DNA of 50,635 bases from Actinomycetota bacterium (GTDB lineage: Bacteria > Actinomycetota > Acidimicrobiia > Acidimicrobiales > SZUA-35): positions 1-50,635 of the forward strand of contig JBCCFN010000002.1 in the NCBI GenBank assembly GCA_039029715.1, read 5' to 3'. The first letter of the stretch is position 1, and every line of letters begins with the position of its first letter. The notes below the pieces were generated by a model. That model made no database searches. It was not told where the DNA came from and saw nothing but the letters and a program-made list of their open reading frames with translations. Made by a program: the position numbers and the translations under genes. Positions 1 to 26,773 of the stretch are shown piece by piece.

Positions 1-624
1 CCGCTCGAACAGCGTGTCGTCGCCGTCGATGTAGTTTGCGATCTCCGGCTCCAGGACGAAGAACGCCCCGTTGATCCAACCCTCGGCGGCCTGGGGCTTC
101 TCCGAGAACTCGACGATCTGGTTGCCGTCGAGCTCCAGGTGGCCGTAGCGGGCCGGCGGCCGGACCGCGGTCAGGGTCGCCAGCTTGCCGTGGGACTTGT
201 GGAACTCCAGCAGGGCCTTGAGGTCCACCTTGCCGACCCCGTCACCCCAGGTCAGCATGAACGTCTCGTCCCCCATGTAGGGAATGAGGCGCTTGATCCG
301 CCCGCCGGTGTTGGTGTTGAGGCCGGTCTCGATCAGATCGACGGTCCAGTCCTCGGGTGCGGCGCCGTGGGACTCGACCGTTCCCTTTGCCGGCCGGACG
401 GTGAGGTCGGACGCCAGGTGGGCGTGGTCGAAGAACCAGCGCTTGATGTACTCGCCCTTGTAGCCGAGGGCGACGACGAACTCGTCGAAGCCGAACTCGT
501 AGTAGTAGCGCATGATGTGCCACAGGATCGGCTTGTTGCCGATCTCGACCATCGGCTTGGGCCGAAGGGTCGTCTCCTCGGACAGTCGGCTCCCGACGCC
601 GCCCGCCAACAGTCCTACCTTCAC
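1..624 (-). CDS. rfbF: glucose-1-phosphate cytidylyltransferase (N-terminal ~208 codons; C-terminus lies left of the window)
   Basis: Minus-strand translation from the GTG at 622-624 reads VKVGLLAGGVGSRLSEETTLRPKPMVEIGNKPILWHIMRYY...TGGRIKRL...INGAFFVLEPE. This is collinear with enterobacterial RfbF/DdhA as I recall it (GGxGxRL loop, KPMVEIGxKPILWHIM block). It is absent from the ORF track because it is truncated by the window edge. Confidence 0.9.
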   Translation of the reverse strand, partial: MKVGLLAGGVGSRLSEETTLRPKPMVEIGNKPILWHIMRYYYEFGFDEFVVALGYKGEYIKRWFFDHAHLASDLTVRPAKGTVESHGAAPEDWTVDLIETGLNTNTGGRIKRLIPYMGDETFMLTWGDGVGKVDLKALLEFHKSHGKLATLTAVRPPARYGHLELDGNQIVEFSEKPQAAEGWINGAFFVLEPEIANYIDGDDTLFER

Positions 625-707
625 CTGGACCACCTCATTCTGGCCGCCTTCCCTCGCTCATTGTGCTCATTCAACTCGTGGTTCCTGTCGGATCCGATCC
701 GTCGCCG

Positions 708-1304
708 TCAACCGCCGACCGACGCCCGCTCGCTCTGTTCATCGGCCCGGGAGATCCCGGCCAGGGTCAGCGCCATGGCCAACTGGGTGAAGCCGTCGGA
801 GATCCCGCCGTTTGCCAGATCCTGTCGAACCTCGTCCTCGGTCCGCCACGACACCGCCGCCGCCTCGTTGGCGTCGCTGGGATCGCCGCGGTGGACCGCA
901 TCGGTTGCCAGGTACAGATCGAAGGTCTGTCTCACCAGCCCGCAGGACGGGTGGTGCCGGCTCAGGTGCCGGGCCGGCCCGAGGGCCTCCCAGCCGGTCT
1001 CCTCCAGGCACTCCCGCCTGGCCGCCGCCTCGGCATCCTCGCCGTCGTCGACCATCCCGCCGGGGATCTCCCATCCCCAGCTGTCTGGCATGAACCGGTG
1101 GCGCCAGATCATCAGGAAGCCCTTGTCGGGATGATGGATGACCATGCCGGCGGCGTTCGGGCCATGGATGACCTCGTGCTCGACGGTCGTGCCGTCCGGC
1201 TTCTCGACCTCGTCGATCGTCAGCGACACCCACCAGCTGTCGTAGACCTCACGAATGGTCCCGTGGTTGATCCACTGCCCCGGGGTCCTGGTCGGCTCAG
1301 CCAT
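708..1304 (-). CDS. NUDIX hydrolase (possible nucleotide-sugar or ADP-ribose pyrophosphatase)
   Basis: Nudix box GGMVDDGEDAEAAARRECLEETG (Gx5Ex7REUxEExGU). GC3-rich frame. Its start overlaps the stop of the upstream GT4 gene by 8 nt. Confidence 0.85.
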   Translation of the reverse strand: MAEPTRTPGQWINHGTIREVYDSWWVSLTIDEVEKPDGTTVEHEVIHGPNAAGMVIHHPDKGFLMIWRHRFMPDSWGWEIPGGMVDDGEDAEAAARRECLEETGWEALGPARHLSRHHPSCGLVRQTFDLYLATDAVHRGDPSDANEAAAVSWRTEDEVRQDLANGGISDGFTQLAMALTLAGISRADEQSERASVGG

Positions 1305-2487
1305 GTCGGCTCCCGTCCGGGACCCGTCCGGCGGCCACCGCCCTGTACATGTCTGCGATCTCGTCGTACTGGGCTGCGAGGCCTCGGGCCGGGTTGGCGT
1401 TGGCGTAGGCCTTCTCGGTCATCTGCTCAACCAGGGCGGGATCGCCGAGCACCCGCTCGATCGCCCGGGCCATGGCCGGGGCGTCCGTCGGCGGGACCAG
1501 GAGGCCGGTGACCTCGTCCTCGACGAACTCGACCACCCCGCCGGCCCGGGTGGCGACCACCGGGGTGCCGACCGCCTGGGCCTCCAGGACGGTCAGGCCG
1601 AACGGCTCGGCGACCGAAGCGTTGACCAGGACGTCGACCGAGCGGAGGATCTCCGGGATGTCGGACCGGCGACCGGCGAACAGCACCCGATCGCCGAGAC
1701 GGGCGGCGGCATCGACCTTGAGCTTCTCGGCGAACTCGGCCGGGCCGGTACCGGCCTCCCCCACGACGATCAGACGAGCATCGGCCGCCGGGCCGCCGGC
1801 CAGAGCCATGGCCTCGACCAGGGTCTGGACGCCCTTGCGGACGTCGATGCGGCCGAGGATCGCAACCAGGGGTCGATCGACACCGCCACTCAGCTCGGCC
1901 CGCAGCGCCGGATCGGCCGGCCCTCTGGTGAACCGATCGAGGTCGACCCCGGGGTGGATCACGGTGACCCTGGTCTTCGGCTTCAGGACCGCGGCACTTG
2001 CCGCCGAGTTGGCGACGGTCAGGGTCGCAAGGTTGGCCGCCTGCTGCAGCACCCGCCGGCCGAGACCCGGCCGAACGATGTTGACCAGGTCGAGCGCAAC
2101 CGGGGTGCGGCTCAACCGACCGGCGACCGCCACCTCCATATGGGACCGGAGGGCGAACGAATGGAGCACGTCGTGGCCGGCGGCCGCCGACCGGACGACC
2201 CCGACACCGCGCCCGACCCCGAACGCAGACCGGAGAGCAGATCGAGGTCCGGGCCGTGCGGTCGTGTCCTGCTGGCGCAGGCCGTCGTGGAGTTCGAGCC
2301 GCAGGTCCTCGAGGGCGAACCCCCGCTCGACCCAGGCCTCGGCGAACGGTGAACCGGCCGGGGTACCGAGCGCGAGGTCGACCCCGCGCTCGGCCAACGC
2401 CTCGACCTGCTCCAGTAGATAGAGCTGTGCGCCCCAGACTTCGGACGGAGGGCTGACCACCAGGACCGAGGTGCGATGCGATGTCAT
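1297..2487 (-). CDS. GT4-family (GT-B fold) glycosyltransferase
   Basis: 396 aa. The C-terminal block EPFGLTVLEAQAVGTPVVATRAGGVVEFVEDEVTGLLVPP is the typical Glycos_transf_1 E-x7-E region. Confidence 0.85.
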   Translation of the reverse strand: MTSHRTSVLVVSPPSEVWGAQLYLLEQVEALAERGVDLALGTPAGSPFAEAWVERGFALEDLRLELHDGLRQQDTTARPGPRSALRSAFGVGRGVGVVRSAAAGHDVLHSFALRSHMEVAVAGRLSRTPVALDLVNIVRPGLGRRVLQQAANLATLTVANSAASAAVLKPKTRVTVIHPGVDLDRFTRGPADPALRAELSGGVDRPLVAILGRIDVRKGVQTLVEAMALAGGPAADARLIVVGEAGTGPAEFAEKLKVDAAARLGDRVLFAGRRSDIPEILRSVDVLVNASVAEPFGLTVLEAQAVGTPVVATRAGGVVEFVEDEVTGLLVPPTDAPAMARAIERVLGDPALVEQMTEKAYANANPARGLAAQYDEIADMYRAVAAGRVPDGSRHG

Positions 2488-2542
2488 CTCGACCTTCTTC
2501 TTCGTTCGGTGACCGGTGTGGCAGCAGGCCGACCGAGCAAGG

Positions 2543-3523
2543 TCAGCTGGTGGTGAGGAGTGACTTCTCGACCTGCTCGTGGACCCAGCGATAGGTCACT
2601 TCGAGACCGTCGACCAGCGAGGTCGACGGCTCCCAATCGAGCAGCTCCAGGATCTTGGTGTTGTCGCTGTTGCGACCCCGGACCCCCTGGGGAGCGGACA
2701 GGTCGTGCACACGCTTGACCTCGACACCTGCGATCGATGCGATGATATCGATCAGCTGGTTGATGGAGACCAGCTCCGACGACCCGATGTTCAGTGGCTC
2801 GTCGATGTCGGAGTGCATCAGCCGCTTGGTCCCCTCGACGCAGTCGTCGACGAACATGAACGACCGGGTCTGGAGGCCATCGCCCCACACCTCGATCTCG
2901 TTCGAACCGGTCACGGCGCAGGTGGCGACCTTCCGGCACAGGGCGGCCGGCGCCTTCTCCCGGCCACCGGTCCAGGACCCGATCGGGCCGTACACGTTGT
3001 GGTACCGACCGATCCGGGTGATGAGCCCGAAGTCCTCATGGAAGTGGCGAGCCATGCGCTCGCTGAACAGCTTCTCCCAGCCGTAGCCGTCCTCGGGCAT
3101 CGCCGGGTAGGCGTGCTCCTCCTTGAGGGCGGTCACGTTCGGATCGAGCTGGTGCTCGGCGGCGTACACGCAGGCCGAGCTGGAGTAGAACAACCGGCTT
3201 GCCTGATGGTGGACCGCGGCCTCAAGCATGTGGGTGCTGATCAGCACGCTCAGCATGCAGGCGGCCTTGTTGTTCTCGATGAAGCCCATACCGCCCATGT
3301 CGGCGGCCAGGTTGTAGATCTCGTCGACGCCCTCGGCGGCGGTGAAACAGGCGTCACGCCGCTGCAGGTCGACCTCGGCCGCATTCTCGGCCCCGTCGTG
3401 GACCTGCCACCATTCGTCAAGCGGCTTGACATCGACCGACAGGACGTCATGGCCGTCTGCAAGCAACGACTTCACCAGATGGCCACCGATGAATCCGCCA
3501 CCGCCGGCTACAAGAATTCTCAC
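2543..3523 (-). CDS. NAD-dependent sugar-nucleotide epimerase of the GDP-mannose 3,5-epimerase (GME) type
   Basis: GGGGFIGGHL Rossmann motif. Long collinear blocks match plant and bacterial GME as I remember it: NLAADMGGMGFI, SSSACVY, YGWEKL, IGRYHNVYGP.GSWTGGREKAPAA.CRK, WGDGLQTRSF, NIGS, GVRGRNSDN. I prefer the GTG at 3523, which sits 7 nt after the AGGAGGG Shine-Dalgarno, over the track ATG at 3577. Confidence 0.85.
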   Translation of the reverse strand: MRILVAGGGGFIGGHLVKSLLADGHDVLSVDVKPLDEWWQVHDGAENAAEVDLQRRDACFTAAEGVDEIYNLAADMGGMGFIENNKAACMLSVLISTHMLEAAVHHQASRLFYSSSACVYAAEHQLDPNVTALKEEHAYPAMPEDGYGWEKLFSERMARHFHEDFGLITRIGRYHNVYGPIGSWTGGREKAPAALCRKVATCAVTGSNEIEVWGDGLQTRSFMFVDDCVEGTKRLMHSDIDEPLNIGSSELVSINQLIDIIASIAGVEVKRVHDLSAPQGVRGRNSDNTKILELLDWEPSTSLVDGLEVTYRWVHEQVEKSLLTTS

Positions 3524-3682
3524 GCCATTCCCTCCTGCGCTTTGATTCGCTGTGGGTGTGTGTGCTCGGTCGCCCACTCGACTCGATTCGTCAGGGTATC
3601 GTCGACCCCAGATCCCATGAGTGAGTGAAAGTACACTGAACTAGGGCGGTTCGGACTAACTCCCGGGGTGCGAATGGCACAC

Positions 3683-4519
3683 TCAGGGTGTTGTCGTAGG
3701 GGTCGATTCATCACACCTGATCTCGGCCAGAATCGTCTCCGGTCCGGCCTCGTTCTCGCCGTCTCCAGCAGCAAAGAGACTGCTGGTATCTCTGGCGATC
3801 GTGGTGGCGTCCGAGTCGGAAACCACCGCCCCGTCGAGATAGGTCCAGGAGAGCTCCAGCCGGCCGTCCCGCTCCTCGATGATCAACTGACCGTCCGGGG
3901 CGACGGCCACGATCTGGGCCGGATCGAGTCGACAGACCGACGCCTGCACCGGGTAGGCGCCCCGGCCGGTGGTGACCGTGCCAGAGCCAACCGGGTCGGC
4001 CGGGGGCGGGAACGGGGCGGCACCGTCCGATGGCAACGCCTCGACCGCGACGAACTGGTCGATGGGGGCCGGGCCGTTGAAGGCCACGGTCAGGTCGACG
4101 GCCGAGCAGCCGGCTGCGACCTCTTCTCCGGGGGTGGTGAAGACCAGCGTCCCGAAGGCGTCCCCCCGGGAGAACTCCAGGGCCACATCGTCGTCCTCGA
4201 CCTCGACGACGTCGTAGTCGGCCAGGGTGTCGTCGAACAGCTGGGCCAGCAGGGCCGCAGCGTCCCCGGTCACGCCGGACAATGTATAGGTCCGTTCATC
4301 GACGTCGAATCGGGTGGCGGTCAGCGCCGAGGGCACCGCAACCGGCCACACGTCCGGTGGATCGGTGGGGGGCACACCGCAGTCGATCGCCGCCGGGCGG
4401 GGTAGCGGGGTCCCGACGTTGACCGGTGGATCGGCATTGTCGTCGGTGCAGGCCGCCAGGGCGGCGACGGCAACGACGAGCAGCAGCAGGAGCCGGCGCG
4501 AAACGAGGGGGATCGCCAC
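3683..4519 (-). CDS. lipoprotein of unknown function
   Basis: N-terminus (GTG start) AIPLVSRRLLLLLVVAVAALAAC has a signal peptide plus lipobox (LAAC). GC3-rich frame. No recognisable catalytic motif. Confidence 0.6.
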   Translation of the reverse strand: MAIPLVSRRLLLLLVVAVAALAACTDDNADPPVNVGTPLPRPAAIDCGVPPTDPPDVWPVAVPSALTATRFDVDERTYTLSGVTGDAAALLAQLFDDTLADYDVVEVEDDDVALEFSRGDAFGTLVFTTPGEEVAAGCSAVDLTVAFNGPAPIDQFVAVEALPSDGAAPFPPPADPVGSGTVTTGRGAYPVQASVCRLDPAQIVAVAPDGQLIIEERDGRLELSWTYLDGAVVSDSDATTIARDTSSLFAAGDGENEAGPETILAEIRCDESTPTTTP

Positions 4520-4692
4520 GAGGGCAATGTATCCCCTCCCATCCAGCCCCGGCCGTCGGCAAGGATGTCGGCGAGAATCGGGCGGCAGCGACCGGGTGAC
4601 CAGCCAGGTGACGGGCAGGCGACCGGCCAGGTGGCCGAGCCAGGTGACACTGCCCCGCCGATCCGGATCTGCCGCACGCTACGGTTTGCGGC

Positions 4693-5775
4693 GTGACGAG
4701 CGACATCGAAAACCACCCGTTCTGGTCAGGCAAGACCGTACTGGTCACCGGTCATACCGGGTTCAAGGGGACCTGGTTGAGCCTGTGGTTGACCAAGATG
4801 GGCGCCAACGTCCACGGCCTGGCGCTCGACCCGTCGACCGACCCGGCGATGTTCGACCTCGTCCGGGGCAACGAGCTGATCGACTCCCACATCGGGCCGG
4901 TGGCCGACGCCGCCTTCGTGTCCGAGACAATGGAAAAGGTCCGCCCGGACATCGTGTTCCACCTCGCAGCCCAGGTCCTGGTCCGGGCGTCCTACGCCGA
5001 CCCGCTGTACACGATCGAGACCAACGTGATGGGCACGGCCAATGTGCTCAACGCCGCCCGCACCGTTCCGAACCTCCAGGCCGTCGTGGTCATCACCAGC
5101 GACAAGTGCTACGAGAACGTCGAGTGGGAGTGGCCGTACCGGGAGAACGAGGCCATGGGTGGCCACGACCCCTACTCGGCAAGCAAGGGCTGCGCCGAGC
5201 TGATCACCTCCTCGATGCGGCGGTCCTACTACGAGGGCCCGGACACCGCCTGGGTGGCATCGGCACGGGCCGGCAACGTGATCGGTGGTGGCGACTGGTC
5301 CGCCGATCGCCTGATCCCAGACATCGTCAAGGCCTTCACCATCAATGAAGAGGTCATCATCCGCATGCCGGAGGCGATCCGCCCGTGGCAGCACGTGCTC
5401 GAGCCGCTTCGCGGCTACCTCACGTTGGCCGAGCGGTTGGCCTCCGGCGACGGCGCGGAGGCCGAGGGCTGGAACTTCGGTCCGGCGGACACCGATGCCC
5501 GCCCGGTCGGCTGGATGGTCGAGCAAATGGCCGAGCGGTGGGGCGAAGGCGCCGACTACCGAATCGAGCGCGACGGCGGACCCCACGAGGCCAGGCTGCT
5601 GAAGCTCGACTGCTCGAAGGCTGCGGCCCGGTTGGGCTGGCGGCCGGAGCTGACCCTGGATCGGGCGTTGGAGTGGGTCATCGACTGGTATCGGGCCCAG
5701 GTGGATGGCAAGGACATGCGAGCGGTCACCTTTGCGCAGATCCAGGCCTATCAGGAGCTCGTCGCTAAGGCGTAA
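4693..5775 (+). CDS. rfbG: CDP-glucose 4,6-dehydratase
   Basis: FWSGKTVLVTGHTGFKGTWLSLWL (the GxTGFKG motif characteristic of RfbG/DdhB), SDKCYEN, YSASKGCAEL (YxxxK), RPWQHVLEPL. The partner enzyme rfbF lies at 1-624. Confidence 0.9.
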   Translation: MTSDIENHPFWSGKTVLVTGHTGFKGTWLSLWLTKMGANVHGLALDPSTDPAMFDLVRGNELIDSHIGPVADAAFVSETMEKVRPDIVFHLAAQVLVRASYADPLYTIETNVMGTANVLNAARTVPNLQAVVVITSDKCYENVEWEWPYRENEAMGGHDPYSASKGCAELITSSMRRSYYEGPDTAWVASARAGNVIGGGDWSADRLIPDIVKAFTINEEVIIRMPEAIRPWQHVLEPLRGYLTLAERLASGDGAEAEGWNFGPADTDARPVGWMVEQMAERWGEGADYRIERDGGPHEARLLKLDCSKAAARLGWRPELTLDRALEWVIDWYRAQVDGKDMRAVTFAQIQAYQELVAKA

Positions 5776-5926
5776 GGCGGTGACGCGTGGGCTGTTTCGC
5801 CCACAAAAGGCCCGGAAACAAGGGGATCGACGCCGGCCGTACTGGGCAATCCTGACGGTGTTGGCGCCCTCGACCCACTCCTAACATGTTGATCAAGATC
5901 AGCGGATTGGCGGAGGGAATACGCCT

Positions 5927-7168
5927 GTGACTCGCGTGAGCCAACATATCGAACGAGTGGTCGTCCACGACTTCTCCGGGCACCCGTTCCAGGTGCAACT
6001 GGCGCGGGAACTCGCATCTCGGGGCTACGAGGCCACCCACCTGTACTGCCCGTCGTTCCAGACGCCGAAGGGCAATGTCGGCGACGAGGACACCAAGGGG
6101 TCGTTCGCCAGCATCGCCGTGCCGCTGTGGCGACCGTTCGCCAAGTACTCGACCGGCAAGCGGTTCCTCCAGGAGCTGGAGTACGGCGTCCGGATCTCGA
6201 TCGCCATCCTTCGCCGCCGGCCCCAGGTCGTGCTGACCGCAAACACGCCGCTGGTGGCGGCCGTCGTCCTCCAGCTGGCCCTGCTGATGCGCCGGATCCC
6301 CGTGGTCTTCTGGCAGCAGGACGTCTACAGCATCGCTATGGCCGGCCATCTTGAGCGCAAGCTCGGCACCCCCGGTCGCCTGGCCGGCAAGGCGCTGATC
6401 TGGTTCGAGAAGTGGCTGCTGCGCTCCAGTGAGAGGGTCGTCGTGATCAGCGAGGACTTCATCGACACGATCGCCGAGTGGGGAACAGACGTCGACCGGG
6501 TCGACGTGATCGAGAACTGGGCCCCGCTCGACGAGCTGCCGGCCGGCACCCGTCAGAACCCGTGGGCCGAGCGCCACGGCATCACAGACGAGCTGGTCTT
6601 CCTCTATGCCGGTTCGCTCGGCCTGAAGCACGAGCCGTCGATCCTGCTCGAGCTGGCCCGAGGCTTCAACAATCGATCGGACGTCCGAGTCATCGTGGCC
6701 TCCGAGGGCCGGGGGGCCAACTGGCTCAACCGCGAGCGTGAGCCCCACGACAACATCGAACTGCTGCCGTTCCAGGACTTCGAGGACATGCCGGACATGC
6801 TGGCCTCGGCCGACGTGCTGCTCGTCCTGCTCGAGCCAGACGCCGGCGGCTTCTCCGTGCCGTCCAAGGTCCTGACCTACCTCTGTGCCGGCCGACCGAT
6901 CCTCGGTGCGATGCCGGACGAGAACCTGGCCGCCCGGAACATCGAGCGGACCGGCACCGGCATCGTGGTCGGTCCCGGTGACGCCCAGCGGTTCGTGTCA
7001 GAGGCCAAGCGTCTGGCTGATGACCAGGGCCTCCGGGAGCGGATGGGTCGGTCCGGTCGGGCCTACGCCGAGTCGACCTTCGACATCGTCCACATCGGGG
7101 ATCGGTTCGAGCGGATCCTGGCCACAGCCCACGGGGATGTGCCGCAACCAGAGCTGGCCAAGCGGTAG
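5927..7168 (+). CDS. GT4-family glycosyltransferase, WcaI-like
   Basis: 413 aa from a GTG start. The C-terminal half (LLPFQDFEDMPDMLASADVLLVLLEPDAGGFSVPSKVLTYLCAGRPILG) follows the WcaI/WbuB pattern. Confidence 0.8.
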   Translation: MTRVSQHIERVVVHDFSGHPFQVQLARELASRGYEATHLYCPSFQTPKGNVGDEDTKGSFASIAVPLWRPFAKYSTGKRFLQELEYGVRISIAILRRRPQVVLTANTPLVAAVVLQLALLMRRIPVVFWQQDVYSIAMAGHLERKLGTPGRLAGKALIWFEKWLLRSSERVVVISEDFIDTIAEWGTDVDRVDVIENWAPLDELPAGTRQNPWAERHGITDELVFLYAGSLGLKHEPSILLELARGFNNRSDVRVIVASEGRGANWLNREREPHDNIELLPFQDFEDMPDMLASADVLLVLLEPDAGGFSVPSKVLTYLCAGRPILGAMPDENLAARNIERTGTGIVVGPGDAQRFVSEAKRLADDQGLRERMGRSGRAYAESTFDIVHIGDRFERILATAHGDVPQPELAKR

Positions 7169-7270
7169 ATTCGTTTCATCCTCCCGCCGCCGGTCGGCCG
7201 CCCCTGACGACGCACGCCGCCGGCCGGGCAAACCGGACCGCCAATTCGAAGCGCCCTGAGCAGGCTTCCC

Positions 7271-9138: not shown

Positions 9139-9140
9139 CG

Positions 9141-9965: not shown

Positions 9966-10840
9966 GCGGCCCGGCCCCAACCGTCAGCATCGGGCTGCCG
10001 ATCTACAACGGCGAGCGGTTCATCGAACGGTCGGTCCGCAGCGTCCTCGACCAGGACTACGCAGACTTCGAGCTGGTCGTGTCTGACAACGGGTCGACCG
10101 ACCGGAGCCTGGAGATCATCGAAGAGGTTGCGGACGGCGACCCGAGGGTGGTCATCCTCCGGAACTCGGAGAATCGGGGCGCCGCCTGGAACTACAACAA
10201 CGCCTTCGATCACAGCCGGGGCCGTTACTTCCGTTGGCATGCCGACGACGACTGGTTCGAGCCCGAGTTGATCGGCAAGCTGGTCAAGGCGTTCGAGGCC
10301 GAACCGTCCGCCGTCATCGCCCACAGCTGGACCCGGTTCGTCGACGACGACGGCGCGATGACCCGGGAGTTCCAGGACGACCTCCGGGTCCAGGACGACA
10401 CCCCTCAGGACCGGCTCCGCTCGACCATCACCAACCTGACGTTCTGCAACCCGGTGTTCGGCCTGATCCGCAGCGATGCCCTCGGTCGGTCGGCCAAGAT
10501 CGGGGCGTTCCCCGGCTCGGATGCCATCCTGCTCTACGAGTTGGCCATGTACGGCACCTTCGCCGTGGTGCCGGAGCTGCTCTACAACCGCCGGCCCGGC
10601 AACTCGATCAAGACCAACAACAGCATGCAGGCGGTCGCCGAGTGGTTCGCCCCGACCGGCCGGGGCGGTCGGTTCCCGGCCGCCTATCGCAGTGCGGCCA
10701 TGGTCAACGCCATCCGCCGGGCCCCGCTGCCGGCCGGCGAGAAGGCGGCATGTCTCCAGACGTTCCTCCGGTACTGGCCGGTCGACTACGCCCGGAAGTC
10801 GCGACGGCGGGCTCGGCGCCGGAAGCGTCGGGCCCAGTGA
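9953..10840 (+). CDS. GT2-family glycosyltransferase
   Basis: Starts at the ATG at 9953, a 13-nt overlap with the sulfotransferase. VSIGLPIYNGERFIERSVRSVLDQDYADFELVVSDNGSTD...WHADDDW. Confidence 0.85.
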   Translation: MADLSGPAPTVSIGLPIYNGERFIERSVRSVLDQDYADFELVVSDNGSTDRSLEIIEEVADGDPRVVILRNSENRGAAWNYNNAFDHSRGRYFRWHADDDWFEPELIGKLVKAFEAEPSAVIAHSWTRFVDDDGAMTREFQDDLRVQDDTPQDRLRSTITNLTFCNPVFGLIRSDALGRSAKIGAFPGSDAILLYELAMYGTFAVVPELLYNRRPGNSIKTNNSMQAVAEWFAPTGRGGRFPAAYRSAAMVNAIRRAPLPAGEKAACLQTFLRYWPVDYARKSRRRARRRKRRAQ

Positions 10841-12036
10841 GCCGGCCCCGCTGGCTCTGGATCAGCGCCGAGGTCGCAGTCACCGAGAAGACCGGCCTGC
10901 TCGTCTACTCCGCTGGACTGAGCGGTGCGCTCGCCGCATCCGGCATCGACATCACCGTGGTTGCGCTCGGGCCGGCGGGGGTGACCCGGGCCGACGTCGA
11001 CCTCCGGGTGGTCCCGGGCGAGCTTCAGGGCGGGTGGCGAAGCATGCTGTCCTCGCTGCCGAACGTGAGCTATGCCTGCGCCACCCCCGAGCTCCGGGCC
11101 GCGATCGCCGAGCTGCTGGCATCGGAGCGGTGGGATGCGGTGGTGTTCGACCACCTCCAGGTCGGATGGGCGGCCGATCTGGTTCCGGACGGCCCGGAGC
11201 CGACAACGATCTTCGTCACCCACAACCACGAGGGGACGGTCCGGATGGCGGTGGCCCGGGAGTACGCCCCGTGGACGCCTCGGGGCCTCGTCCTGCGGTT
11301 CGATGCGCTGAAGGCAGCCCGGCTGGAGCGACGCACCGCAGCCCGGGCGGCCATCATCACCTCGATCACCGACGCCGACCGGCGTCTGTTCGAACGGCTG
11401 GCGCCGACCGCCCGTCACGTCACCCTCTCCCCCGGCTACAGGGACCCGATCCGGGATCGGGTCCCGCCGATGGCGGACCGCCCGAGACGGGTCGGCATCG
11501 TCGGGAGCTTCGAGTGGCACGTCAAGCAGGAGAACCTGGAGCGGTTCGTCACCGCAGCCGACCCGGTGCTGTCGGCCAACGGCATCGAACTGGTGATCGC
11601 CGGGCAGCTCCCAGCGCCGTTCCGGGAGCGGCTCCAGCGGCTCCCCTCCGTCGACGTCGTCGGTTGGGTCGACTCGGTGGCCGACTTCCTCGACCAGTGC
11701 CGGATCGGGTTGGTTGCCGAACCGCTCGGCGGCGGCTTCAAGCTCAAGACGCTGGAGTATGTGGCCAACCGGGTCCCGATCGCCTCGCTGACCGGTGGCA
11801 CCGAGGGCCTGCCGCTCGCTGCTCCGGACGCCCTGATCGAGGCCGGATCGATCGACGCCCTGGTCGAAGCCGTCGTTGCGGCAATCGACGACCCCGTTAG
11901 GCTCGAATCGGTGGCCGACGAGGCGATCCGCCTGGCGGCACCGATGATGCGGTGGGAACAGCAGGTCACTGCCCTGGTCGATGCCGTCGCAACGAGTGCC
12001 ACCCGTCGAGGGGACAGGGCGAGTGAAGTCGAGTAG
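10837..12036 (+). CDS. GT4-like (GT-B) glycosyltransferase
   Basis: Putative GTG at 10837 (GTGA overlap with the previous stop). Reads VSRPRWLWISAEVAVTEKTGLLVYSAGL... The C-terminal GT-B half is VGIVGSFEWHVKQENL...GGGFKLKTLEYVANRVPI. The start is uncertain. Confidence 0.75.
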   Translation: MSRPRWLWISAEVAVTEKTGLLVYSAGLSGALAASGIDITVVALGPAGVTRADVDLRVVPGELQGGWRSMLSSLPNVSYACATPELRAAIAELLASERWDAVVFDHLQVGWAADLVPDGPEPTTIFVTHNHEGTVRMAVAREYAPWTPRGLVLRFDALKAARLERRTAARAAIITSITDADRRLFERLAPTARHVTLSPGYRDPIRDRVPPMADRPRRVGIVGSFEWHVKQENLERFVTAADPVLSANGIELVIAGQLPAPFRERLQRLPSVDVVGWVDSVADFLDQCRIGLVAEPLGGGFKLKTLEYVANRVPIASLTGGTEGLPLAAPDALIEAGSIDALVEAVVAAIDDPVRLESVADEAIRLAAPMMRWEQQVTALVDAVATSATRRGDRASEVE

Positions 12037-12054
12037 CAACCAGCACCGCCGATC

Positions 12055-13476
12055 ATGATCCTCACCGTCTTCGTCGGGATCGTCGGACTTGCGGCCTTCA
12101 TCGGGCTGACGGCCTACTTCATCTCGCTGGAGAATCGGGGCGACACCCATCGGACGTTCCTGATCCTGATGACGGTGCTGCTGGTGGAAGCGACGCTGGC
12201 CGGCCACGCCGCGAACACCCCGACCGGGATCCTCCGGCCGACGATCGCCGGCCAGGACTTCCGGCCCCCGGACCTGATCATCCTCCCCGCGGTCCTGGCT
12301 CGACTGCTGGGCGGGACCCGGCGGCGATTCCCGATGGAGCAGCTGTACCTGTTCGCCTATCTCGGCTGGTATGCGTTCGGGATCATCCCCGGGATCGCCA
12401 ACGGATTCCAGCTGCAGCAGGCCCTGTTCCAGGGCAAGTCGGTGTTCTACCTGGCCGGCGGGATGCTCATCGCCTCCGGCGCCGACCTGCGGAAGCTGGC
12501 GGACCAGCTCGGCCGCTGGGGTCAGTGGCTGGCCGTGATCGTGGTGGCGACCACCATCTTCCAGTTGGCAGACATCTCGATCCGGATCGACACACCGGTC
12601 CAGCGGATCAACCGCCTGCTACAGCTCGGCAACGACAGCATCACCCTCTACAGCTCGATCGGTCTGGTGATCCTGGCCATCGAGGCCCACCGGGAACACC
12701 CAAGACTCCGGCAGTCGCTGGCCGGCGTGGTCATGGTCCTGGCACCGCTTGGCGGCTCCCAGCGGGCGTCCTACCTTGCGGTTGCGATGGCCATCTCGGT
12801 GATCGGCATCCTGCTGTTCACCCCGACCTTCGCCAGGAGACGGACGGTGACCCCGGTCCAGATCGGCCTGGTCGGCGCCGCCATCGCCGGGCTGATGATC
12901 GCCGCCCTGGCCGTCGGCCCCGGCCGGAGCGTGTTGACAAACCGAGTCGATGACGCGTTCGGCGGCGAGCAGGAGATCAACAGCGCCCTCGAACGGTTCG
13001 AGCTGGCCGATCAGGCCATCAGTCGCATCGAGGAGCGGCCGGTACTCGGCTGGGGTCTCGGCGTCACCGTCAACCGGACCGCACGGGGACGGACGATCAA
13101 CACCTCGGCCCACAACTTCATCCTCGACATCACGATGCGGGCCGGCGTGGTCGGGCTGGTCATGTTCACCCTTGTCATCGCCTCGATCATCCGGCGAGGC
13201 CTCATCCGTTGGCGGGATGAGCCGGACAACCTCGTTGCGGGGCTGAAGGTCGGGGCGGTGATCGCCATCGCCGTGTTCCTGGCCAAGGGCCTGGTCGAAC
13301 CGGCGGTCGACAAATACCGCCTGGTCCTGACTGCGGCCACCGCATTCGGGCTGATCCTGGCCCCGGGGGTCGGCCTGGATGACGACGACACCGACCCGGA
13401 CGATGCGTCGGCATCGCCGGCCGCAGCGGACCTCGCCCCCAGGCTCGGTTCGTCTGCGTCCTCGTCCTACTCGTAG
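12055..13476 (+). CDS. Wzy / O-antigen-ligase family polytopic membrane protein (putative repeat-unit polymerase)
   Basis: 473 aa with about 10 or more hydrophobic segments. Wzy_C-type block TSAHNFILDITMRAGVVGLVMF. Acidic, Ser-rich C-terminal tail. Confidence 0.75.
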   Translation: MILTVFVGIVGLAAFIGLTAYFISLENRGDTHRTFLILMTVLLVEATLAGHAANTPTGILRPTIAGQDFRPPDLIILPAVLARLLGGTRRRFPMEQLYLFAYLGWYAFGIIPGIANGFQLQQALFQGKSVFYLAGGMLIASGADLRKLADQLGRWGQWLAVIVVATTIFQLADISIRIDTPVQRINRLLQLGNDSITLYSSIGLVILAIEAHREHPRLRQSLAGVVMVLAPLGGSQRASYLAVAMAISVIGILLFTPTFARRRTVTPVQIGLVGAAIAGLMIAALAVGPGRSVLTNRVDDAFGGEQEINSALERFELADQAISRIEERPVLGWGLGVTVNRTARGRTINTSAHNFILDITMRAGVVGLVMFTLVIASIIRRGLIRWRDEPDNLVAGLKVGAVIAIAVFLAKGLVEPAVDKYRLVLTAATAFGLILAPGVGLDDDDTDPDDASASPAAADLAPRLGSSASSSYS

Positions 13477-14249
13477 CCCATCGAGACCAGCGTCCGCCGG
13501 AAGAGCAGATTGGCCAACCGGCGCTGGAACGACGTCATCTCGTCCTGTCGACGGGTACCGCCCCGGAAGTGGGAGCCGACCTTCGAGCGGGCGTTGTCCC
13601 CGGTGTAGGACACGGCGATCCGGTGGATCTCCTCGTCCTCGACCTCGATGGAGAGGTGCTCGCAGACCCGCCGCAGCACGTCCTCCGGCGTCGCCTTCAG
13701 ATCCTCGTAGCGGATGACCAACGTCGTCGGCTCACGGCGCCAGGCCTCATAGACCGGGATCTGCCGGATTCGCATCCACAGCAGTGACAGCGGCATCCAC
13801 CGCAGTCTGGCGAAGCTGTCCGACTTGCCTCGGGCCCGCCTGCGCTGCCCCCGCTGGTAGGCCGAGACCACGACGTCCCGAGGGTCCCGGTGGATATAGG
13901 TCGAACGGACCAGTCCCTCTGCGCCGAGCCGCTTGGCAACCGAGGTCGGCTTCTCGTGCGATTTCACGACGAAGGTGTGGCCGGCACCGACGACCGGGGC
14001 CAGCCGGTCCCAGGCTTCGTCTGTCAGCTCCCGGATGTTGCAATTGTCGAACCGGAGGACGTCGTCGAGGCCGTGCTCATCACGAAGACTGCGCACATCC
14101 CGCTGGCCGGCCGCCTGCAGGAGTTCATTCGTCATATTGAAGATCCAACCGCTTCCGGCGCTCTCCATCCCGGCCGAAATGACCAGCTGCCCGCTGCCAG
14201 TTGCAGGGGCTCCCTCCGCTAGACTGGAATCGTTCGGTTTCAGCTCCAC
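13467..14249 (-). CDS. sulfotransferase family protein
   Basis: 5'-PSB LVISAGMESAGSGWIFN and 3'-PB STYIHRDPRDVVVSAY. I use the GTG at 14249; the track ATG at 14471 would add about 74 poorly coding residues. There is a 10-nt convergent overlap with the Wzy-like gene. Confidence 0.75.
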   Translation of the reverse strand: MELKPNDSSLAEGAPATGSGQLVISAGMESAGSGWIFNMTNELLQAAGQRDVRSLRDEHGLDDVLRFDNCNIRELTDEAWDRLAPVVGAGHTFVVKSHEKPTSVAKRLGAEGLVRSTYIHRDPRDVVVSAYQRGQRRRARGKSDSFARLRWMPLSLLWMRIRQIPVYEAWRREPTTLVIRYEDLKATPEDVLRRVCEHLSIEVEDEEIHRIAVSYTGDNARSKVGSHFRGGTRRQDEMTSFQRRLANLLFRRTLVSMGYE

Positions 14250-14364
14250 GGGCTGAAATGTAGCAGAGCGGGTCGGAGCCACCCATGGGTCAAATCTTGA
14301 CCGTGCGTGGTCTCTCTGGACGGGCCGATCGTCGTCCGGAACCCCGATCGAGGAGAGCGGGTCG

Positions 14365-15357
14365 GTGAAGCAAATCCTGATGCTCGGGGTCGGCCTCGTC
14401 GTCGTGGCCCTGGTCACCGTGGGGTTCTGGGAGCGGGGCTCAGAGGCCCGGCTCGAGAGCATCCCCGTCAAAACCCAGAACTTCGGGATGCGGACGAATG
14501 GGGGCCTGTTCGACCCAGACAGCTTCGAGACGACCGAGGAGTGGCTCGGCCGGTCGATCGACTACACCGTCCAGTTCAGCGGCCGCCGCAGCCCCCATGC
14601 CATGAACAGCGCAGTGTTCGGCCTCATGGCGGCCGAGGACGCAAGCCTCCCGGCCTACGCCGACCGCCTGACGCTGGTCATCTCGGTCCCGCTCGCCTTC
14701 TCCGAGCCGGACGAGAACGGTCCCCTCGACGGGCGGGAGGGTCTGCTTGCCACCGCCGAGGGCCGTCACGACACCGCATACCTCCGCCTGGCCGAGCGCC
14801 TGATCGAGGGCGGCTACGGTGACGCCATTCTCCGCCTCGGTCACGAGTTCAACGGCGGGTGGCCGCCGTGGTCCTCGTTGGGTAACGAGGATGCGTTCAT
14901 CGCCGCCTATCGCCACGTCCATGATCTGTTCCAGGCCCAGTCGGCTGGGTTCGAGTTCGACTGGACCGCCATGCGGCCGGACTTCGCAACCACGGCCCCG
15001 GCGGCGTGGCCTGGCATCGACTACGTCGACTACATCGGGCTGGACGTGTACTGGAAGAGTGATCCCGGTGATGGCTGGGATTCGGACCGGTGGCAGAGCC
15101 AATTCCTCCCCCAACTCGAGGCCCATCTGGCCTTCGCGAAGGAGCGTGGATTGCCGGTAAGCTTCCCGGAGTGGGGCATCGAGGGCGACGATGTTCCGGA
15201 GTTCATCGAGCAGATGCATACGTGGTTCAACGGGCTACCGCCGAGCGGCCCGGGATCGCTTGGATACCAGGCCTACTTCAGTGGCGGGCGGGCGTTCTCT
15301 CTGGACAACTATGTGGATGCTCGCCGAACCTTCCGGCAGCTCTTTGGTGCACCCTAG
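14365..15357 (+). CDS. GH26-like (clan GH-A) glycoside hydrolase with an N-terminal membrane anchor or signal
   Basis: N-terminus KQILMLGVGLVVVALVTVGFW. LRLGHEFNGGWPPWS matches the H-E-x-N-G-x-W acid/base motif of GH26, and SFPEWGI is a candidate nucleophile motif. Confidence 0.75.
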   Translation: MKQILMLGVGLVVVALVTVGFWERGSEARLESIPVKTQNFGMRTNGGLFDPDSFETTEEWLGRSIDYTVQFSGRRSPHAMNSAVFGLMAAEDASLPAYADRLTLVISVPLAFSEPDENGPLDGREGLLATAEGRHDTAYLRLAERLIEGGYGDAILRLGHEFNGGWPPWSSLGNEDAFIAAYRHVHDLFQAQSAGFEFDWTAMRPDFATTAPAAWPGIDYVDYIGLDVYWKSDPGDGWDSDRWQSQFLPQLEAHLAFAKERGLPVSFPEWGIEGDDVPEFIEQMHTWFNGLPPSGPGSLGYQAYFSGGRAFSLDNYVDARRTFRQLFGAP

Positions 15358-15455
15358 GCGCGGGCACAATCGCAACCATTCAGTAAAGAATTCGACACAC
15401 GTGTCGATAGAGGTAGCAACGCCCCTATCCGCCTACCCCCAGTGAGGTACGGCCA

Positions 15456-17879
15456 ATGCCAGCCCGCCGCCGACTCTTCGTCGCCTATCTGCTTCTCGTC
15501 GCCTCGATTGCCGCACTGCTCCCGGCATCGGCCGGTGGTTCGACCCGGAGCCTCGATCCGAGCACGCTCGGGATGCGCCCCAACGGCAGCTTCCTGGATC
15601 GAGACCGCCTGGAATATTACGAAGAGCAGCTCGGTGGCTCGATCAACTGGTACGTCGGATTCGCCGGCCGCCACTCCCCGGAGCAGATGCGGAGCGCGGT
15701 CTACGGCCAGCTCCGTCACCCGGACGCCGTGCTGCCGGAGATCGCCGATCGGATGAACCTGGTCATGACCGTCCCGCTGGCCTTCGGCCGCCAGACCGCC
15801 AAGACCGAGGCCGAGCGCCGGGCGGTCGAGGTGCTGCTTGGCAAGACGGCGGCCGGTGCCTGGGACGAGCACTACCGGGCCGTGGCCCGCTCGTTGATCG
15901 AGGGCGGCTACCCGGATGCCGTCATTCGCCTCGGCCACGAGTTCACCGGCAACTGGTTCCCGTGGTCATCGCAGGGCAACGAAGATGCCTATATCGCCGC
16001 CTACCGCCATGTCCATGGTGTGCTCAAGCAGGAGTCGCCAGACTTCCGGTTCGAGTGGAATGCCTCGGTCCGGAGCTACGTGGAATTCGGCGAGCAGGCC
16101 TATCCCGGTGACGACGTCGTCGACGTCATCGGCATGGACCTCTACTACCGTCCGAACCGTGGCGGCCGGACCATGTCGGAGGGTGCATGGCAGCGGATCT
16201 ATCTGCCGTCGCTGTCGGCTCAGCAACGGTTCGCAGCCCAGCGGGGCAAGCCCCTCGCCTACTCGGAGTGGGCCAATGGGGATGTCGACGAGCCGGCGTT
16301 CATCCAGGAGATGCACGACTGGATGGCATCGCTCCCGGCCTCCGGCGGCGGGTCGCTGCTGTACCACTCCTACTTCAACGCATCGAACGCGACCTACAAC
16401 CTGGAGAACTATCCCAAGACCAAGCAGCGGTACCTGGACCTGTTCGGCAACGGCGGGAACGCATCGGCCTCCAGCCCGGCCGACCTGCTCCCGCCACCTG
16501 GGACCAACCCGGCGGATCCGGCCCCGGTCTCGGACCCCGCACCGACCACCACGGTGCCCGCCCCGGCCCCGACCACCCCGCCCCCGGCAACCAACGGCAG
16601 CTCCCGGCAGTTCACGTTCTATGACCAGTCGGTCGTTCATCGGTCGAACAGCTATGCCGAGCTCGACCATCAGGGCCCGACCAACTGGCGGAGCCCGGTC
16701 AACTACGTGGACGGCTCCACGTTCATCCGCCTGGCCATAACCGAGAAGCCGAGCGCCAAGCCGGTCCAGGTCCTGTCCTGTGCGTGGCGTGACCGCCTGG
16801 CCCAGGAGACCTGCATCCGCCTCGGGACCTTCGACCGGACCGGCATCCACTACATCGAGCTGAAGAACCCGAGGGGGTGGTGGAAGAAATCCAAGTGGGA
16901 CTTCGACCGGCCGATCGAGATCGCCCGGATCATGGTCAAGGATCCGGAGACCAACACCCTGCTGAACGATCACCGCTGCGGGCAGGCCTGCTACGGCGGG
17001 TCGGACGATCTGGACGACCACACCCCGATCTCGTTCGAGGCCGAGATGATCCTGGTGGCCAAGGGGGATGACCTGGTCGTCCCGGCCGACTGGATCGGCT
17101 GCCCAGCAGCCTGGGGTTGCGGGGCAGACGGGACCGTCCCGACCCCAACCCCGACGACGGCACCGACGCCGACGACGGCGCCGAGCCCGACCAGCCCGCC
17201 ACCGGAAACCACCGCCCCGGCCCCGACCCCGACCGGCGGCCCGACCCTGACGGCGCCGGCCACGGTCACCGTCCAGCCGGACACGCCGGTGACGATCGCC
17301 ATCGAGAGCGACGCCGACTCGTTCCAGTGGTGGAAGGTCTCCGGGCCCGGTTCGATCCATTGGGACGACCGGATGGTCAAGAACCCGACCGCCTCCTTCC
17401 CGAACGCCGGCGTCTACGAGGTGACCGTCCGGGCTCGTCGGGGTGGTGACACCGAACTGGCCCGGGTTCGGATCGTGGTCGACGGTGACGCAACCGGGGC
17501 GTCCGGTGCACCAGGGACGTCCGATCAACCGGTCGAGCCCGCCCAGCCGGCAGCCACCGGCCTACCGGAGCTCCGGGTCCGCTCGACTCAGGGCGCCGAG
17601 GGCGAGGTCCTGGTGTTCAAGGTGGTGCTCGATCGACCGGCACCAAACGACGTGACCGTCAGCCTCAGCACCCAGGACATCACCGCCCAGGCCGGGTCGG
17701 ACTACCGATCGCGGAACACGACGATCACCATCCCGGCCGGGGAGCAGCGGGCCTGGGTCGGTGTTCGGGCCCTGTCGGACAACGCCAGGGAATCGGCCGA
17801 GGCCTTCCGGCTCAAGGTCCAGTCGGTGTCTGGCGCGACGGTGTCCAACGGGACCGGCCGAGGCACGATCGTCTCCTGA
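15456..17879 (+). CDS. secreted multidomain protein: GH26-like catalytic domain, Pro/Thr linker, Cys-containing orphan domain, Pro/Thr linker, PKD/Ig-like domain, Calx-beta domain
   Basis: Signal peptide MPARRRLFVAYLLLVASIAALLPASAGG. IRLGHEFTGNWFPWS and AYSEWAN are paralogous to the 14365 gene. PT-rich linkers lie at about 16480-16600 and 17130-17240. The C-terminal LVFKVVLDRPAPNDVTVSLSTQDITAQAGSDYRSRNTTITIPAGEQRAWVGVRALSDN fits the Calx-beta pattern. Confidence 0.8.
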   Translation: MPARRRLFVAYLLLVASIAALLPASAGGSTRSLDPSTLGMRPNGSFLDRDRLEYYEEQLGGSINWYVGFAGRHSPEQMRSAVYGQLRHPDAVLPEIADRMNLVMTVPLAFGRQTAKTEAERRAVEVLLGKTAAGAWDEHYRAVARSLIEGGYPDAVIRLGHEFTGNWFPWSSQGNEDAYIAAYRHVHGVLKQESPDFRFEWNASVRSYVEFGEQAYPGDDVVDVIGMDLYYRPNRGGRTMSEGAWQRIYLPSLSAQQRFAAQRGKPLAYSEWANGDVDEPAFIQEMHDWMASLPASGGGSLLYHSYFNASNATYNLENYPKTKQRYLDLFGNGGNASASSPADLLPPPGTNPADPAPVSDPAPTTTVPAPAPTTPPPATNGSSRQFTFYDQSVVHRSNSYAELDHQGPTNWRSPVNYVDGSTFIRLAITEKPSAKPVQVLSCAWRDRLAQETCIRLGTFDRTGIHYIELKNPRGWWKKSKWDFDRPIEIARIMVKDPETNTLLNDHRCGQACYGGSDDLDDHTPISFEAEMILVAKGDDLVVPADWIGCPAAWGCGADGTVPTPTPTTAPTPTTAPSPTSPPPETTAPAPTPTGGPTLTAPATVTVQPDTPVTIAIESDADSFQWWKVSGPGSIHWDDRMVKNPTASFPNAGVYEVTVRARRGGDTELARVRIVVDGDATGASGAPGTSDQPVEPAQPAATGLPELRVRSTQGAEGEVLVFKVVLDRPAPNDVTVSLSTQDITAQAGSDYRSRNTTITIPAGEQRAWVGVRALSDNARESAEAFRLKVQSVSGATVSNGTGRGTIVS

Positions 17880-20833: not shown

Positions 20834-20921
20834 GCCACCGATGATCGCACCTGACCGGCACCGATACCGCATGCCAGACACAGCCTGACCGACCCCGCTG
20901 GGCGGCGTCGATGTCCTTCAC

Positions 20922-26741: not shown

Positions 26742-26773
26742 GGCCGAAGCGTAGCCCCGGTCCCGACCGCCGT

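Follow-up and report, generated by a model that had tools for sequence, protein, structure and literature searches.

Gene content of the locus

The first 17,879 positions of contig JBCCFN010000002.1 (GenBank assembly GCA_039029715.1, an Actinomycetota bacterium of the order Acidimicrobiales), whose whole length of 50,635 nt was analysed and is called the window below, hold 16 genes of a glycan locus in which two sulfotransferase genes, StfA and StfB, are wedged between glycosyltransferase genes. Judging from the protein families and their arrangement, it is fairly likely that this locus is the right-hand part of a hypervariable surface or exopolysaccharide island of the Ilumatobacteraceae, and that it directs a Wzx/Wzy-type heteropolysaccharide whose lipid-linked repeat unit would be sulfated in the cytoplasm. 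The Ilumatobacteraceae, of the class Acidimicrobiia, are a monoderm high-GC lineage.

Because the window has a G+C content of 66–73%, genes were called by third-position GC content (GC3), which separates the real genes from many spurious open reading frames (ORFs), and families were assigned by scanning the predicted proteins with Pfam and NCBIfam profile hidden Markov models (HMMs). All 16 genes are intact ORFs free of frameshifts, with GC3 of 0.82–0.92, and every family is confirmed by an HMM match except for a lipoprotein-like protein (Table 1). The gene order and strands listed by the first-pass annotation, which had been made from the sequence alone, were reproduced, and each of its family assignments was upheld by the profile searches. 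The locus encodes five glycosyltransferases, three of family GT4 and two of family GT2, alongside the sugar-nucleotide enzymes RfbF, RfbG and GDP-mannose 3,5-epimerase (GME).

The genes are arranged in two divergent operons, the lipoprotein-like gene being the first of the minus-strand operon, and the region between them is presumed to contain the promoters of both. The plus-strand run from GT2a to the Wzy_C-family gene is tightly packed, its largest gap being 18 nt. GT2a and StfA share an ATGA overlap at 8203–8206; the StfA stop ends at 9138 and the StfB ATG begins at 9141, leaving a 2-nt gap (9139–9140); StfB and GT2b overlap by 13 nt (9953–9965); and a GTGA overlap at 10837–10840 links GT2b to GT4c. 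These junctions are exactly those annotated at first pass. On the other strand, the NUDIX and GT4a genes overlap by 8 nt, at the start of the former and the stop of the latter.

Table 1 Genes and features of the glycan locus, with the profile or structural matches on which the family assignments rest
Feature	Position	Strand	Evidence and remarks
rfbF, glucose-1-phosphate cytidylyltransferase	1..624	-	C-terminus cut by contig end; NTP_transferase 5.5e-17
NUDIX hydrolase	708..1304	-	PF00293 6.7e-19
GT4a, GT4 glycosyltransferase	1297..2487	-	Glycos_transf_1 5.7e-34
GME, GDP-mannose 3,5-epimerase	2543..3577	-	PDB 8sg0 and 2c59, E 1e-99 to 1e-97
Lipoprotein-like protein	3683..4519	-	LAAC lipobox, N-terminal hydrophobic segment; no Pfam match
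Divergent intergenic region, 173 nt	4520..4692	.	From gene coordinates
rfbG, CDP-glucose 4,6-dehydratase	4693..5775	+	TIGR02622 480 bits (cutoff 278)
GT4b, WcaI-like GT4	5927..7168	+	Glyco_trans_4_4 and Glycos_transf_1; WcaI family 126 bits, below cutoff 276
GT2a, GT2 glycosyltransferase	7271..8206	+	Glycos_transf_2 7.2e-13
StfA, Sulfotransfer_3	8203..9138	+	PF13469 1.2e-18, 68.6 bits (cutoff 27)
StfB, Sulfotransfer_1	9141..9965	+	PF00685 5.8e-15, 55.8 bits (cutoff 22)
GT2b, GT2 glycosyltransferase	9953..10840	+	Glycos_transf_2 2.8e-35
GT4c, GT4 glycosyltransferase	10837..12036	+	Glyco_trans_1_4 1.1e-13
Wzy_C-family membrane protein	12055..13476	+	PF04932 5.1e-14; at least 8 hydrophobic segments
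StfC, small sulfotransferase, convergent with wzy	13467..14249 (corrected start)	-	PF00685 2.9e-10, 40.4 bits (cutoff 22)
GH26a, GH26-like hydrolase	14365..15357	+	PF02156 22.8 bits (cutoff 20.2); hydrophobic N-terminus (membrane anchor or signal)
GH26b, secreted, Pro/Thr-rich linkers, C-terminal Calx-beta	15456..17879	+	PF02156 8.9e-10, 38.8 bits (cutoff 20.2); Calx-beta 1.1e-10; signal-like N-terminus

StfB resembles heparan-sulfate sulfotransferases

A profile built from 26 StfB sequences and run against the PDB matched a bacterial sulfotransferase (3rnl, 7.6e-41), the heparan sulfate (HS) 3-O-sulfotransferases (3-OSTs) 3-OST-1, -3 and -5 (1e-31 to 1e-26) and the sulfotransferase domain of N-deacetylase/N-sulfotransferase (NDST, 1e-23), whereas cytosolic sulfotransferases (SULTs) reached only about 1e-6. 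The protein carries the 5'-phosphosulfate-binding (5'-PSB) loop GAMKxxTS (here MKSATSS), the KE(L)xFF motif with the catalytic glutamate, and the 3'-phosphate-binding motif RDPxxRxxS (here RDPLQRIES). K17, K39-E40, R104 and S112 are invariant residues, K39 and E40 being unchanged in all 26 sequences. From these matches and invariant motifs, StfB is assigned as a glycosaminoglycan-type carbohydrate sulfotransferase, of the heparan-sulfate 3-OST/N-sulfotransferase (NST) type, with its catalytic residues kept. It shares with the animal HS 3-OSTs and the NDST domain the motifs that bind 3'-phosphoadenosine 5'-phosphosulfate (PAPS) and the catalytic KExxFF motif. The animal enzymes, however, act on a glycosaminoglycan chain in the Golgi, whereas StfB is a soluble bacterial protein that would act on a lipid-linked repeat unit.

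StfA is by sequence a PAPS-dependent sulfotransferase resembling the protein-tyrosine sulfotransferases (TPSTs). Its motifs GMLQRTGTN and VRDGRSVxES (RDGRSVAES here) are invariant in four orthologs, and its nearest solved structures are TPST1/2 (3e-6), followed by the CurM sulfotransferase (7e-4). Searches of metagenome contigs with the single protein and with the four-sequence alignment returned no relatives.

The original call gave the third protein, StfC, 334 aa. The search detected 556 homologues, typically of about 245 aa, which align to residues 96–333, and the most likely start is the GTG at 14249, giving about 260 aa, with 14282 also possible. The longer call was rejected: the high GC3 of its first ~30 codons coincides with GH26a on the opposite strand, and GC3 is about 0.6 ahead of the conserved domain. 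With the corrected start, the apparent overlap with the divergent GH26a gives way to an intergenic stretch of about 115 nt. StfC keeps the 3'-phosphate-binding motif RDPRDVVVS and the His/Lys pair K170/H172. StfC is thus shorter than first annotated, and it is atypical and lineage-specific.

The three proteins are assigned to the cytoplasm, none of them containing a hydrophobic segment; GH26a, GH26b and the lipoprotein-like protein each have one at the N-terminus. No NCBIfam model matches any of the sulfotransferases. An identity as Stf0-like lipid sulfotransferases, which the first-pass annotation had named among the findings that would overturn its reading, was considered and rejected: there was no match to the Stf0 family PF09037 at E<=0.01 for StfA, StfB or StfC, no Stf0 chain appeared among the PDB matches, and StfB groups with the HS enzymes.

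The sulfotransferase pair is conserved in related loci

Related loci (designated by L numbers) were collected by context look-ups and tblastn, and the genome contigs were searched with StfB for its 80 best relatives. The named homologues, at 69–91% identity, belong to metagenome-assembled genomes (MAGs) that carry the labels Ilumatobacter sp., Ilumatobacteraceae or Acidimicrobiales, which places the contig in an uncultured, marine-type member of the Ilumatobacteraceae. Only L007 came out of the StfB search as a close genome; in the remaining 78 loci the StfB relatives reach at most 44% identity.

The synteny comparison suggested at first pass uncovered a conserved core. The order GT4b-GT2a-StfA-StfB-GT2b-GT4c-GH26(Calx-beta) recurs in L002, L004 and L007 at 40–75% amino-acid identity. 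In L007, an Acidimicrobiales MAG whose StfB is 75% identical, NUDIX, GT4a, GME and the lipoprotein are followed, after a change of direction, by RfbG, GT4b, Wzy, GT2a, StfA, StfB, GT2b, GT4c and GH26b, and then by a Wzx flippase, a different third sulfotransferase and a polyprenyl synthetase; wzy has thus moved relative to the window. Further left on the contig of L007 (JANQPB010000014.1, which also bears L089), some 20 kb away, are a GH26a ortholog, a surface protein of 2790 aa and, next to ClpB, a protein with weak Wzz/GNVR/P-loop (CbiA) matches that resembles a co-polymerase. L004, an Ilumatobacter sp. MAG, has Wzx and then, after a change of direction, GT4b, GT2a, StfA, StfB, GT2b, GT4c and GH26-Calx, directly followed by a HAL2-type 3'(2'),5'-bisphosphate nucleotidase (15174–16169, plus strand; TIGR01330 300 bits, cutoff 267). 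Such nucleotidases remove 3'-phosphoadenosine 5'-phosphate (PAP), which PAPS-dependent sulfation leaves as a by-product. At its opposite end, the L004 locus has a sulfatase and a further sulfotransferase. In L002, a CoA_binding_3+Bac_transf priming transferase and Wzx lie beside the core, and a third sulfotransferase follows the Calx-beta gene. Since the arrangement is kept in these loci, the pair that StfA and StfB form between GT2 genes is, on this comparative evidence, a conserved functional unit.

In L002 a single 722-aa product with Wzy_C and Sulfotransfer_3 domains was called at 7712–9880 (plus strand), to which tblastn aligned a Wzy part (7706–8698) and a StfA part (9092–9691). This could be a real polymerase-StfA fusion, or a merged call or frameshift.

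The CDP-sugar genes and the sulfotransferase core do not always travel together. L086 has only the CDP module, which lies between a polyprenyl synthetase and ClpB; the core without this module is found in L002 and L004; and the two are combined in the window, in L007 and, with other sulfotransferases, in L087, where Sulfotransfer_2 and Sulfotransfer_3 genes come after C-methyltransferase-type genes. The two modules are thus cassettes that can be separated within a hypervariable island. The G+C content dips to about 0.655–0.658 at positions 2001–4000 and 14001–16000 of the window, against 0.69–0.72 elsewhere on the contig, which fits a mosaic, exchangeable glycan island. RfbF of L086 and L087/L088 is 87–89% identical to that of the window, and the missing stretch of the island beyond position 1 is probably similar to the rfbF flank of the L086/L087 type.

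More distant StfB relatives (30–44% identity) occur in cyanobacteria, Myxococcota, Rhodobacterales and other Actinomycetota among the GTDB genomes. Homologues of glycosyltransferases, Wzx, Wzy, phosphoglycosyltransferases or polysaccharide co-polymerases (PCPs) lie within 10 kb in 57 of the 79 loci, a raw count taken without a control set. Giant surface proteins of 2790–4014 aa with PKD, Fn3_assoc, CHB_HEX_C and Laminin_G domains adjoin glycan or sulfotransferase genes in L089 (11062–19434, minus strand), L087 (from 18607) and L005 (from 2604); they may be glycan acceptors or adhesins.

Are the sulfotransferases glycan enzymes?

Several observations weigh against a sugar substrate for each of the three proteins. 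For StfA, this substrate is read from the gene context, its nearest solved relatives being weakly similar protein-tyrosine sulfotransferases. A StfB homologue of 55% identity (L003, 10001–10831, on a 433-kb contig) is flanked by a P-type ATPase and unrelated genes, without glycosyltransferases, so not every member of the StfB clade is embedded in a glycan locus; a second sulfotransferase lies 5 kb from it. StfC is transcribed separately, it has no ortholog in L002, L004 or L007, and its nearest structures are retinol dehydratase and cytosolic SULTs, matched weakly (5e-5). Moreover, in StfC and its closest homologues (47–61% identical) a serine replaces the 5'-PSB lysine (AGMESAGSGW versus the consensus AGMxKAGSxW), and this subclade may comprise atypical or weakly active sulfotransferases.

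Such observations could be explained if one or more of the enzymes modified peptide or protein tyrosine (StfA, as a TPST- or RaxST-like enzyme) or a small molecule or lipid (StfC, as a SULT-like one), their placement being an accident of island assembly. TPST1/2 and CurM are indeed the only solved relatives of StfA, and the SULT-type relatives of StfC, its lack of conservation and the isolated StfB homologue all agree with this. We nonetheless regard it as unlikely, because the coupling of StfA and StfB to GT2 genes is kept in four loci at 59–75% identity, StfB falls firmly in the glycosaminoglycan-sulfotransferase clade, no RaxX-like peptide, polyketide synthase or lipid-synthesis gene lies nearby in the window, and none of the three proteins matches Stf0.

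Sugar supply

The CDP-6-deoxyhexose module recognized at first pass is confirmed by both of its enzymes. RfbF scores 272 bits against TIGR02623, under the cutoff of 300 only because about 48 aa are missing at the contig end, and RfbG scores well above the cutoff of its own model (Table 1). The RfbF orthologs, of 256 aa, are 85–91% identical, and the RfbF start is most likely at 624. HMM scans of the window found neither an rfbH/E1 3-dehydrase nor an E3 reductase; a CDP-3,6-dideoxyhexose was accordingly rejected as the product, no rfbH being present in the window.

The short-chain dehydrogenase/reductase (SDR) encoded at 2543–3577 had been annotated as a GME-like epimerase. It matches plant GME over residues 19–339 with 337 bits (E 1e-99) and keeps the catalytic Cys, the Tyr-x3-Lys and the second Lys (SSACVY, YGWEKL, GGREKAPAA), features by which it is assigned as a genuine GDP-mannose 3,5-epimerase. 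The earlier call is thereby sharpened: the enzyme would provide a second, GDP-linked sugar outside the CDP pathway, and the locus would supply GDP-L-galactose or GDP-L-gulose besides the CDP-4-keto-6-deoxyglucose branch. GME is 81% conserved in L007 and L087. To our knowledge, GMEs are uncommon in bacteria, as are L-galactose and L-gulose in their glycans; a literature search on bacterial GME or L-galactose polysaccharides yielded nothing useful.

The NUDIX hydrolase, which adjoins rfbF also in L007, L086 and L087, probably trims the pool of nucleoside diphosphate sugars in a role analogous to that of WcaH. GT4a has orthologs of 69–74% identity in L007 and L087, and GT4b is 60–71% identical in L002, L004, L007 and L087. 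A counterpart of the lipoprotein-like protein, of about 35% identity, is found at this position in L007 and L087 too.

In L087 (10768–17105) and L086 (10768–15453), rfbF is followed by an SDR gene and three paralogous C-methyltransferase-type genes (PF08421/PF08484). These suggest that the relatives make a methyl-branched or multiply methylated CDP-6-deoxyhexose, and because such genes follow rfbF there, the CDP end product of the window may likewise be methyl-branched.

Polymerase, missing machinery and GH26 enzymes

A second group of observations counts against a complete polymer pathway. No Wzx was found in the window by Pfam, nor by tblastn with the Wzx proteins of L087 and L004, and in the closest syntenic genome wzx sits directly after GH26b, where the window has an unrelated SDR. 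The whole 50.6 kb likewise holds no priming phosphoglycosyltransferase of the Bac_transf or WecA type, no chain-length regulator or co-polymerase (Wzz/PCP), no LCP ligase, and neither the PAPS genes cysDNC/cysC nor cysQ. The absences that the first-pass annotation had stated for wzx, the priming transferase, the chain-length regulator and the PAPS genes are confirmed for the full contig. An attempt to extend the contig leftwards recovered the NUDIX protein only on a 2.4-kb Logan contig, which added nothing. A scan for consensus sigma-70 promoters gave none, and a scan for intrinsic terminators gave two weak terminator-like sites, fewer than in shuffled sequences; both results are uninformative about operons in this high-GC organism. 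Lastly, the Wzy_C match (Table 1) does not distinguish by HMM a polymerase from a WaaL/PglL-type ligase.

One way to account for the missing genes is that the locus is a decayed or incomplete remnant that has lost wzx, lacks a priming transferase and makes no polymer. In favor of this, L007 has wzx and a further sulfotransferase after GH26b in place of the unrelated SDR, with no wzx anywhere in the 50 kb of the window, and the gene order has changed, with wzy moved. Against it stand the 16 intact genes with their high GC3. Furthermore, the contig ends inside rfbF, so that much of the island is unassembled, the corresponding part of L007 amounting to about 25 kb or more, and wzx is found at different positions within the island among the relatives that have it (L002, L004, L087 and L007). 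We consider decay highly improbable.

The ambiguity of the Wzy_C protein raises another possibility, namely that it is a WaaL/PglL-type ligase that moves a short sulfated oligosaccharide from the lipid carrier to a surface protein or cell-wall acceptor. PF04932 is the O-antigen-ligase domain common to Wzy, WaaL and PglL, and the best NCBIfam match of the protein is only an IctB-like model, far below its cutoff. The absence of a chain-length regulator from the window would suit a ligase, as would the giant surface proteins of 2790–2795 aa beside the glycan genes of the related islands L087 and L089. The window itself, however, has no giant surface protein; the co-polymerase-like protein of the L007 contig suggests polymerization; the secreted GH26 hydrolases suit a polymer better than a short protein glycan; and actinobacterial protein O-glycosylation is usually of the Pmt type. 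A ligase is thus very unlikely, and the Wzy_C protein is better read, from its family and context, as a putative repeat-unit polymerase.

Both catalytic-Glu motifs can be read in GH26a and GH26b (HEFNG/HEFTG and PEWG/SEWA), with a partial Pfam match, and the best solved match of GH26a is the GH26 lichenase CelH (4e-9). Their extracytoplasmic location and their conservation beside the core make it probable that these enzymes trim the polymer or release it outside the cell.

Proposed pathway

Based on the above data, we propose the following pathway for a sulfated Wzx/Wzy-type polysaccharide. On the cytoplasmic side of the membrane, the glycosyltransferases would assemble an oligosaccharide repeat unit with undecaprenyl phosphate as its lipid carrier. 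StfB and StfA, translationally coupled to the flanking GT2 genes, would then O-sulfate specific sugars of this lipid-linked unit with PAPS. As PAPS is available only in the cytoplasm, sulfation would precede flipping, as proposed for synechan. Wzx would flip the sulfated unit and Wzy would polymerize it, after which the GH26 enzymes may trim or release the polymer outside the cell, like the dedicated hydrolases of other exopolysaccharide systems. StfC would be a strain-specific accessory that perhaps adds a further sulfate, or that is weakly active. The flippase, the priming phosphoglycosyltransferase, the chain-length regulator and the PAPS supply would be encoded off the contig.

The first-pass argument that the wedged StfA and StfB act on the repeat unit itself gains strength from the block conserved in three other loci, from the relationship of StfB to the HS 3-OST/NST enzymes and from the PAP phosphatase in the L004 locus. 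The polysaccharide product is probably sulfated, as a prediction from the gene content.

Other features of the contig

From 18 to 50 kb the window carries unrelated genes, among them those for an SDR, PurU, a TauD-family dioxygenase, an aldolase, a histidine kinase, a protein combining PAS and methyl-accepting chemotaxis domains (PAS-MCP), and ABC and MFS transporters. The TauD-family gene (20000–20881, minus strand; 240 bits to the taurine dioxygenase model, below the cutoff of 313) lies 2 kb downstream of the glycan locus and adjoins PurU (19125 to about 19990), with no link to the sulfation genes established. The protein encoded at 32725–34656 (minus strand) joins an N-terminal Rieske [2Fe-2S] domain to a complete thiamine-pyrophosphate enzyme with the three domains of the acetolactate-synthase type, which is an unusual combination. 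Two consecutive proteins of about 460–500 aa without Pfam matches are encoded at 25419–28264 (minus strand), upstream of and overlapping a HisKA_3 histidine kinase gene (24109–25506). Rfam and tRNA scans of the window returned no matches.

Discussion

The locus belongs to the known sulfotransferase-bearing Wzx/Wzy polysaccharide loci and is not a new kind of system. The first-pass annotation knew of no characterized locus that pairs a CDP-6-deoxyhexose module with several sulfotransferases in a high-GC Gram-positive-type genome; as a claim of novelty this was too strong, being preceded by the synechan xss cluster, the capsules of Vibrio sp. KMM 8419 and Cobetia marina, and wps-1 of Actinoplanes missouriensis.

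The last of these is the closest precedent. wps-1 (AMIS_7280-7380; PMC13390465, 2026) combines, in a Wzx/Wzy cluster, a GH26 protein with two sulfotransferases from different families, one being of the heparan-sulfate type; according to its authors, no Wzx/Wzy cluster with GH26 had been characterized before, and sulfation awaits proof (PMC13390465). Compared by domain composition only, the two loci have in common the phylum Actinomycetota, the Wzx/Wzy pathway, two sulfotransferase families, GH26, GT2 genes and a sulfation that is so far predicted. wps-1 has its own Wzx, Wzz, GT26, methyltransferase and kinase-like protein and lacks CDP-sugar and GME genes, whereas the window locus adds GME, the CDP-sugar branch and Calx-beta. 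The host of wps-1 is a sporangium-forming soil actinomycete of the class Actinomycetes, not a member of the Acidimicrobiia. No Actinoplanes locus is among the 80 best StfB relatives, so that WpsH is at best a distant homologue of StfB.

Experimental verification exists for synechan, the product of the xss cluster of Synechocystis sp. PCC 6803, a Wzx/Wzy cluster whose two sulfotransferases, each from its own subfamily, lie among eight glycosyltransferases (PMC8205485). Its sulfate content was measured, and in the model proposed the lipid-linked repeat unit is modified before flipping (PMC8205485). The window locus shares with it the Wzx/Wzy type and the placement of sulfotransferases among glycosyltransferases. 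The sulfotransferases themselves are only distantly related, and among the StfB homologues those of cyanobacteria, at 35–41% identity, rank next after the close relatives. Synechan differs further in its diderm host, which needs an outer-membrane polysaccharide export (OPX) protein and a PCP, in its regulation by XssQ/R/S, which the window locus does not have, and in the lack of GH26, GME and CDP-sugar genes.

Sulfated capsules with structures solved by nuclear magnetic resonance (NMR) are described for Vibrio sp. KMM 8419 (PMC11641403) and Cobetia marina KMM 1449 (PMC11766843), both with sulfotransferase genes in their polysaccharide clusters. This embedding is the likeness to the window locus; the differences are ABC-transporter-dependent export, cysNDC within the cluster, Gram-negative hosts, and dTDP-rhamnose and UDP-glucose as sugars. 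The colanic acid (wca) cluster of E. coli recalls the window locus in its WcaI-family GT4, its NUDIX hydrolase with a WcaH-like role, its GDP-sugar-modifying SDRs and its Wzx/Wzy logic. It differs in having no sulfotransferases, CDP-sugar branch or GH26, and the window protein matches WcaI at 126 bits versus a cutoff of 276. A literature search on Ilumatobacter or Acidimicrobiia with sulfotransferases found nothing relevant.

Sulfated polysaccharides matter both to industry and in ecology and, outside the cyanobacteria, are still considered rare among bacteria. If the proposed pathway is correct, sulfated-glycan synthesis extends to the Acidimicrobiia, which are environmentally abundant and rarely cultured. 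This would widen the known distribution without adding a new principle, since the logic was already set by synechan. The locus also reinforces the association of a heparan-sulfate-type sulfotransferase with GH26 in an actinobacterial Wzx/Wzy cluster, seen once before in Actinoplanes wps-1. It further presents a compact, conserved pair of putative bacterial carbohydrate sulfotransferases, one of them soluble and of the heparan-sulfate type, such as are sought for the enzymatic or microbial production of sulfated glycans.

We tentatively entertain a bolder reading, which at present seems somewhat less probable than its negation: that the Ilumatobacteraceae make a sulfated heteropolysaccharide containing L-galactose or L-gulose and a CDP-derived 6-deoxyhexose, with HS-3-OST-like sulfation on the lipid-linked unit and remodelling by secreted GH26/Calx-beta enzymes dedicated to it. 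If so, monoderm Actinomycetota would have their first chemically sulfated polysaccharide system, with a sugar chemistry recalling the sulfated galactans of algae, and these bacteria would be an overlooked source of sulfated glycans in aquatic habitats.

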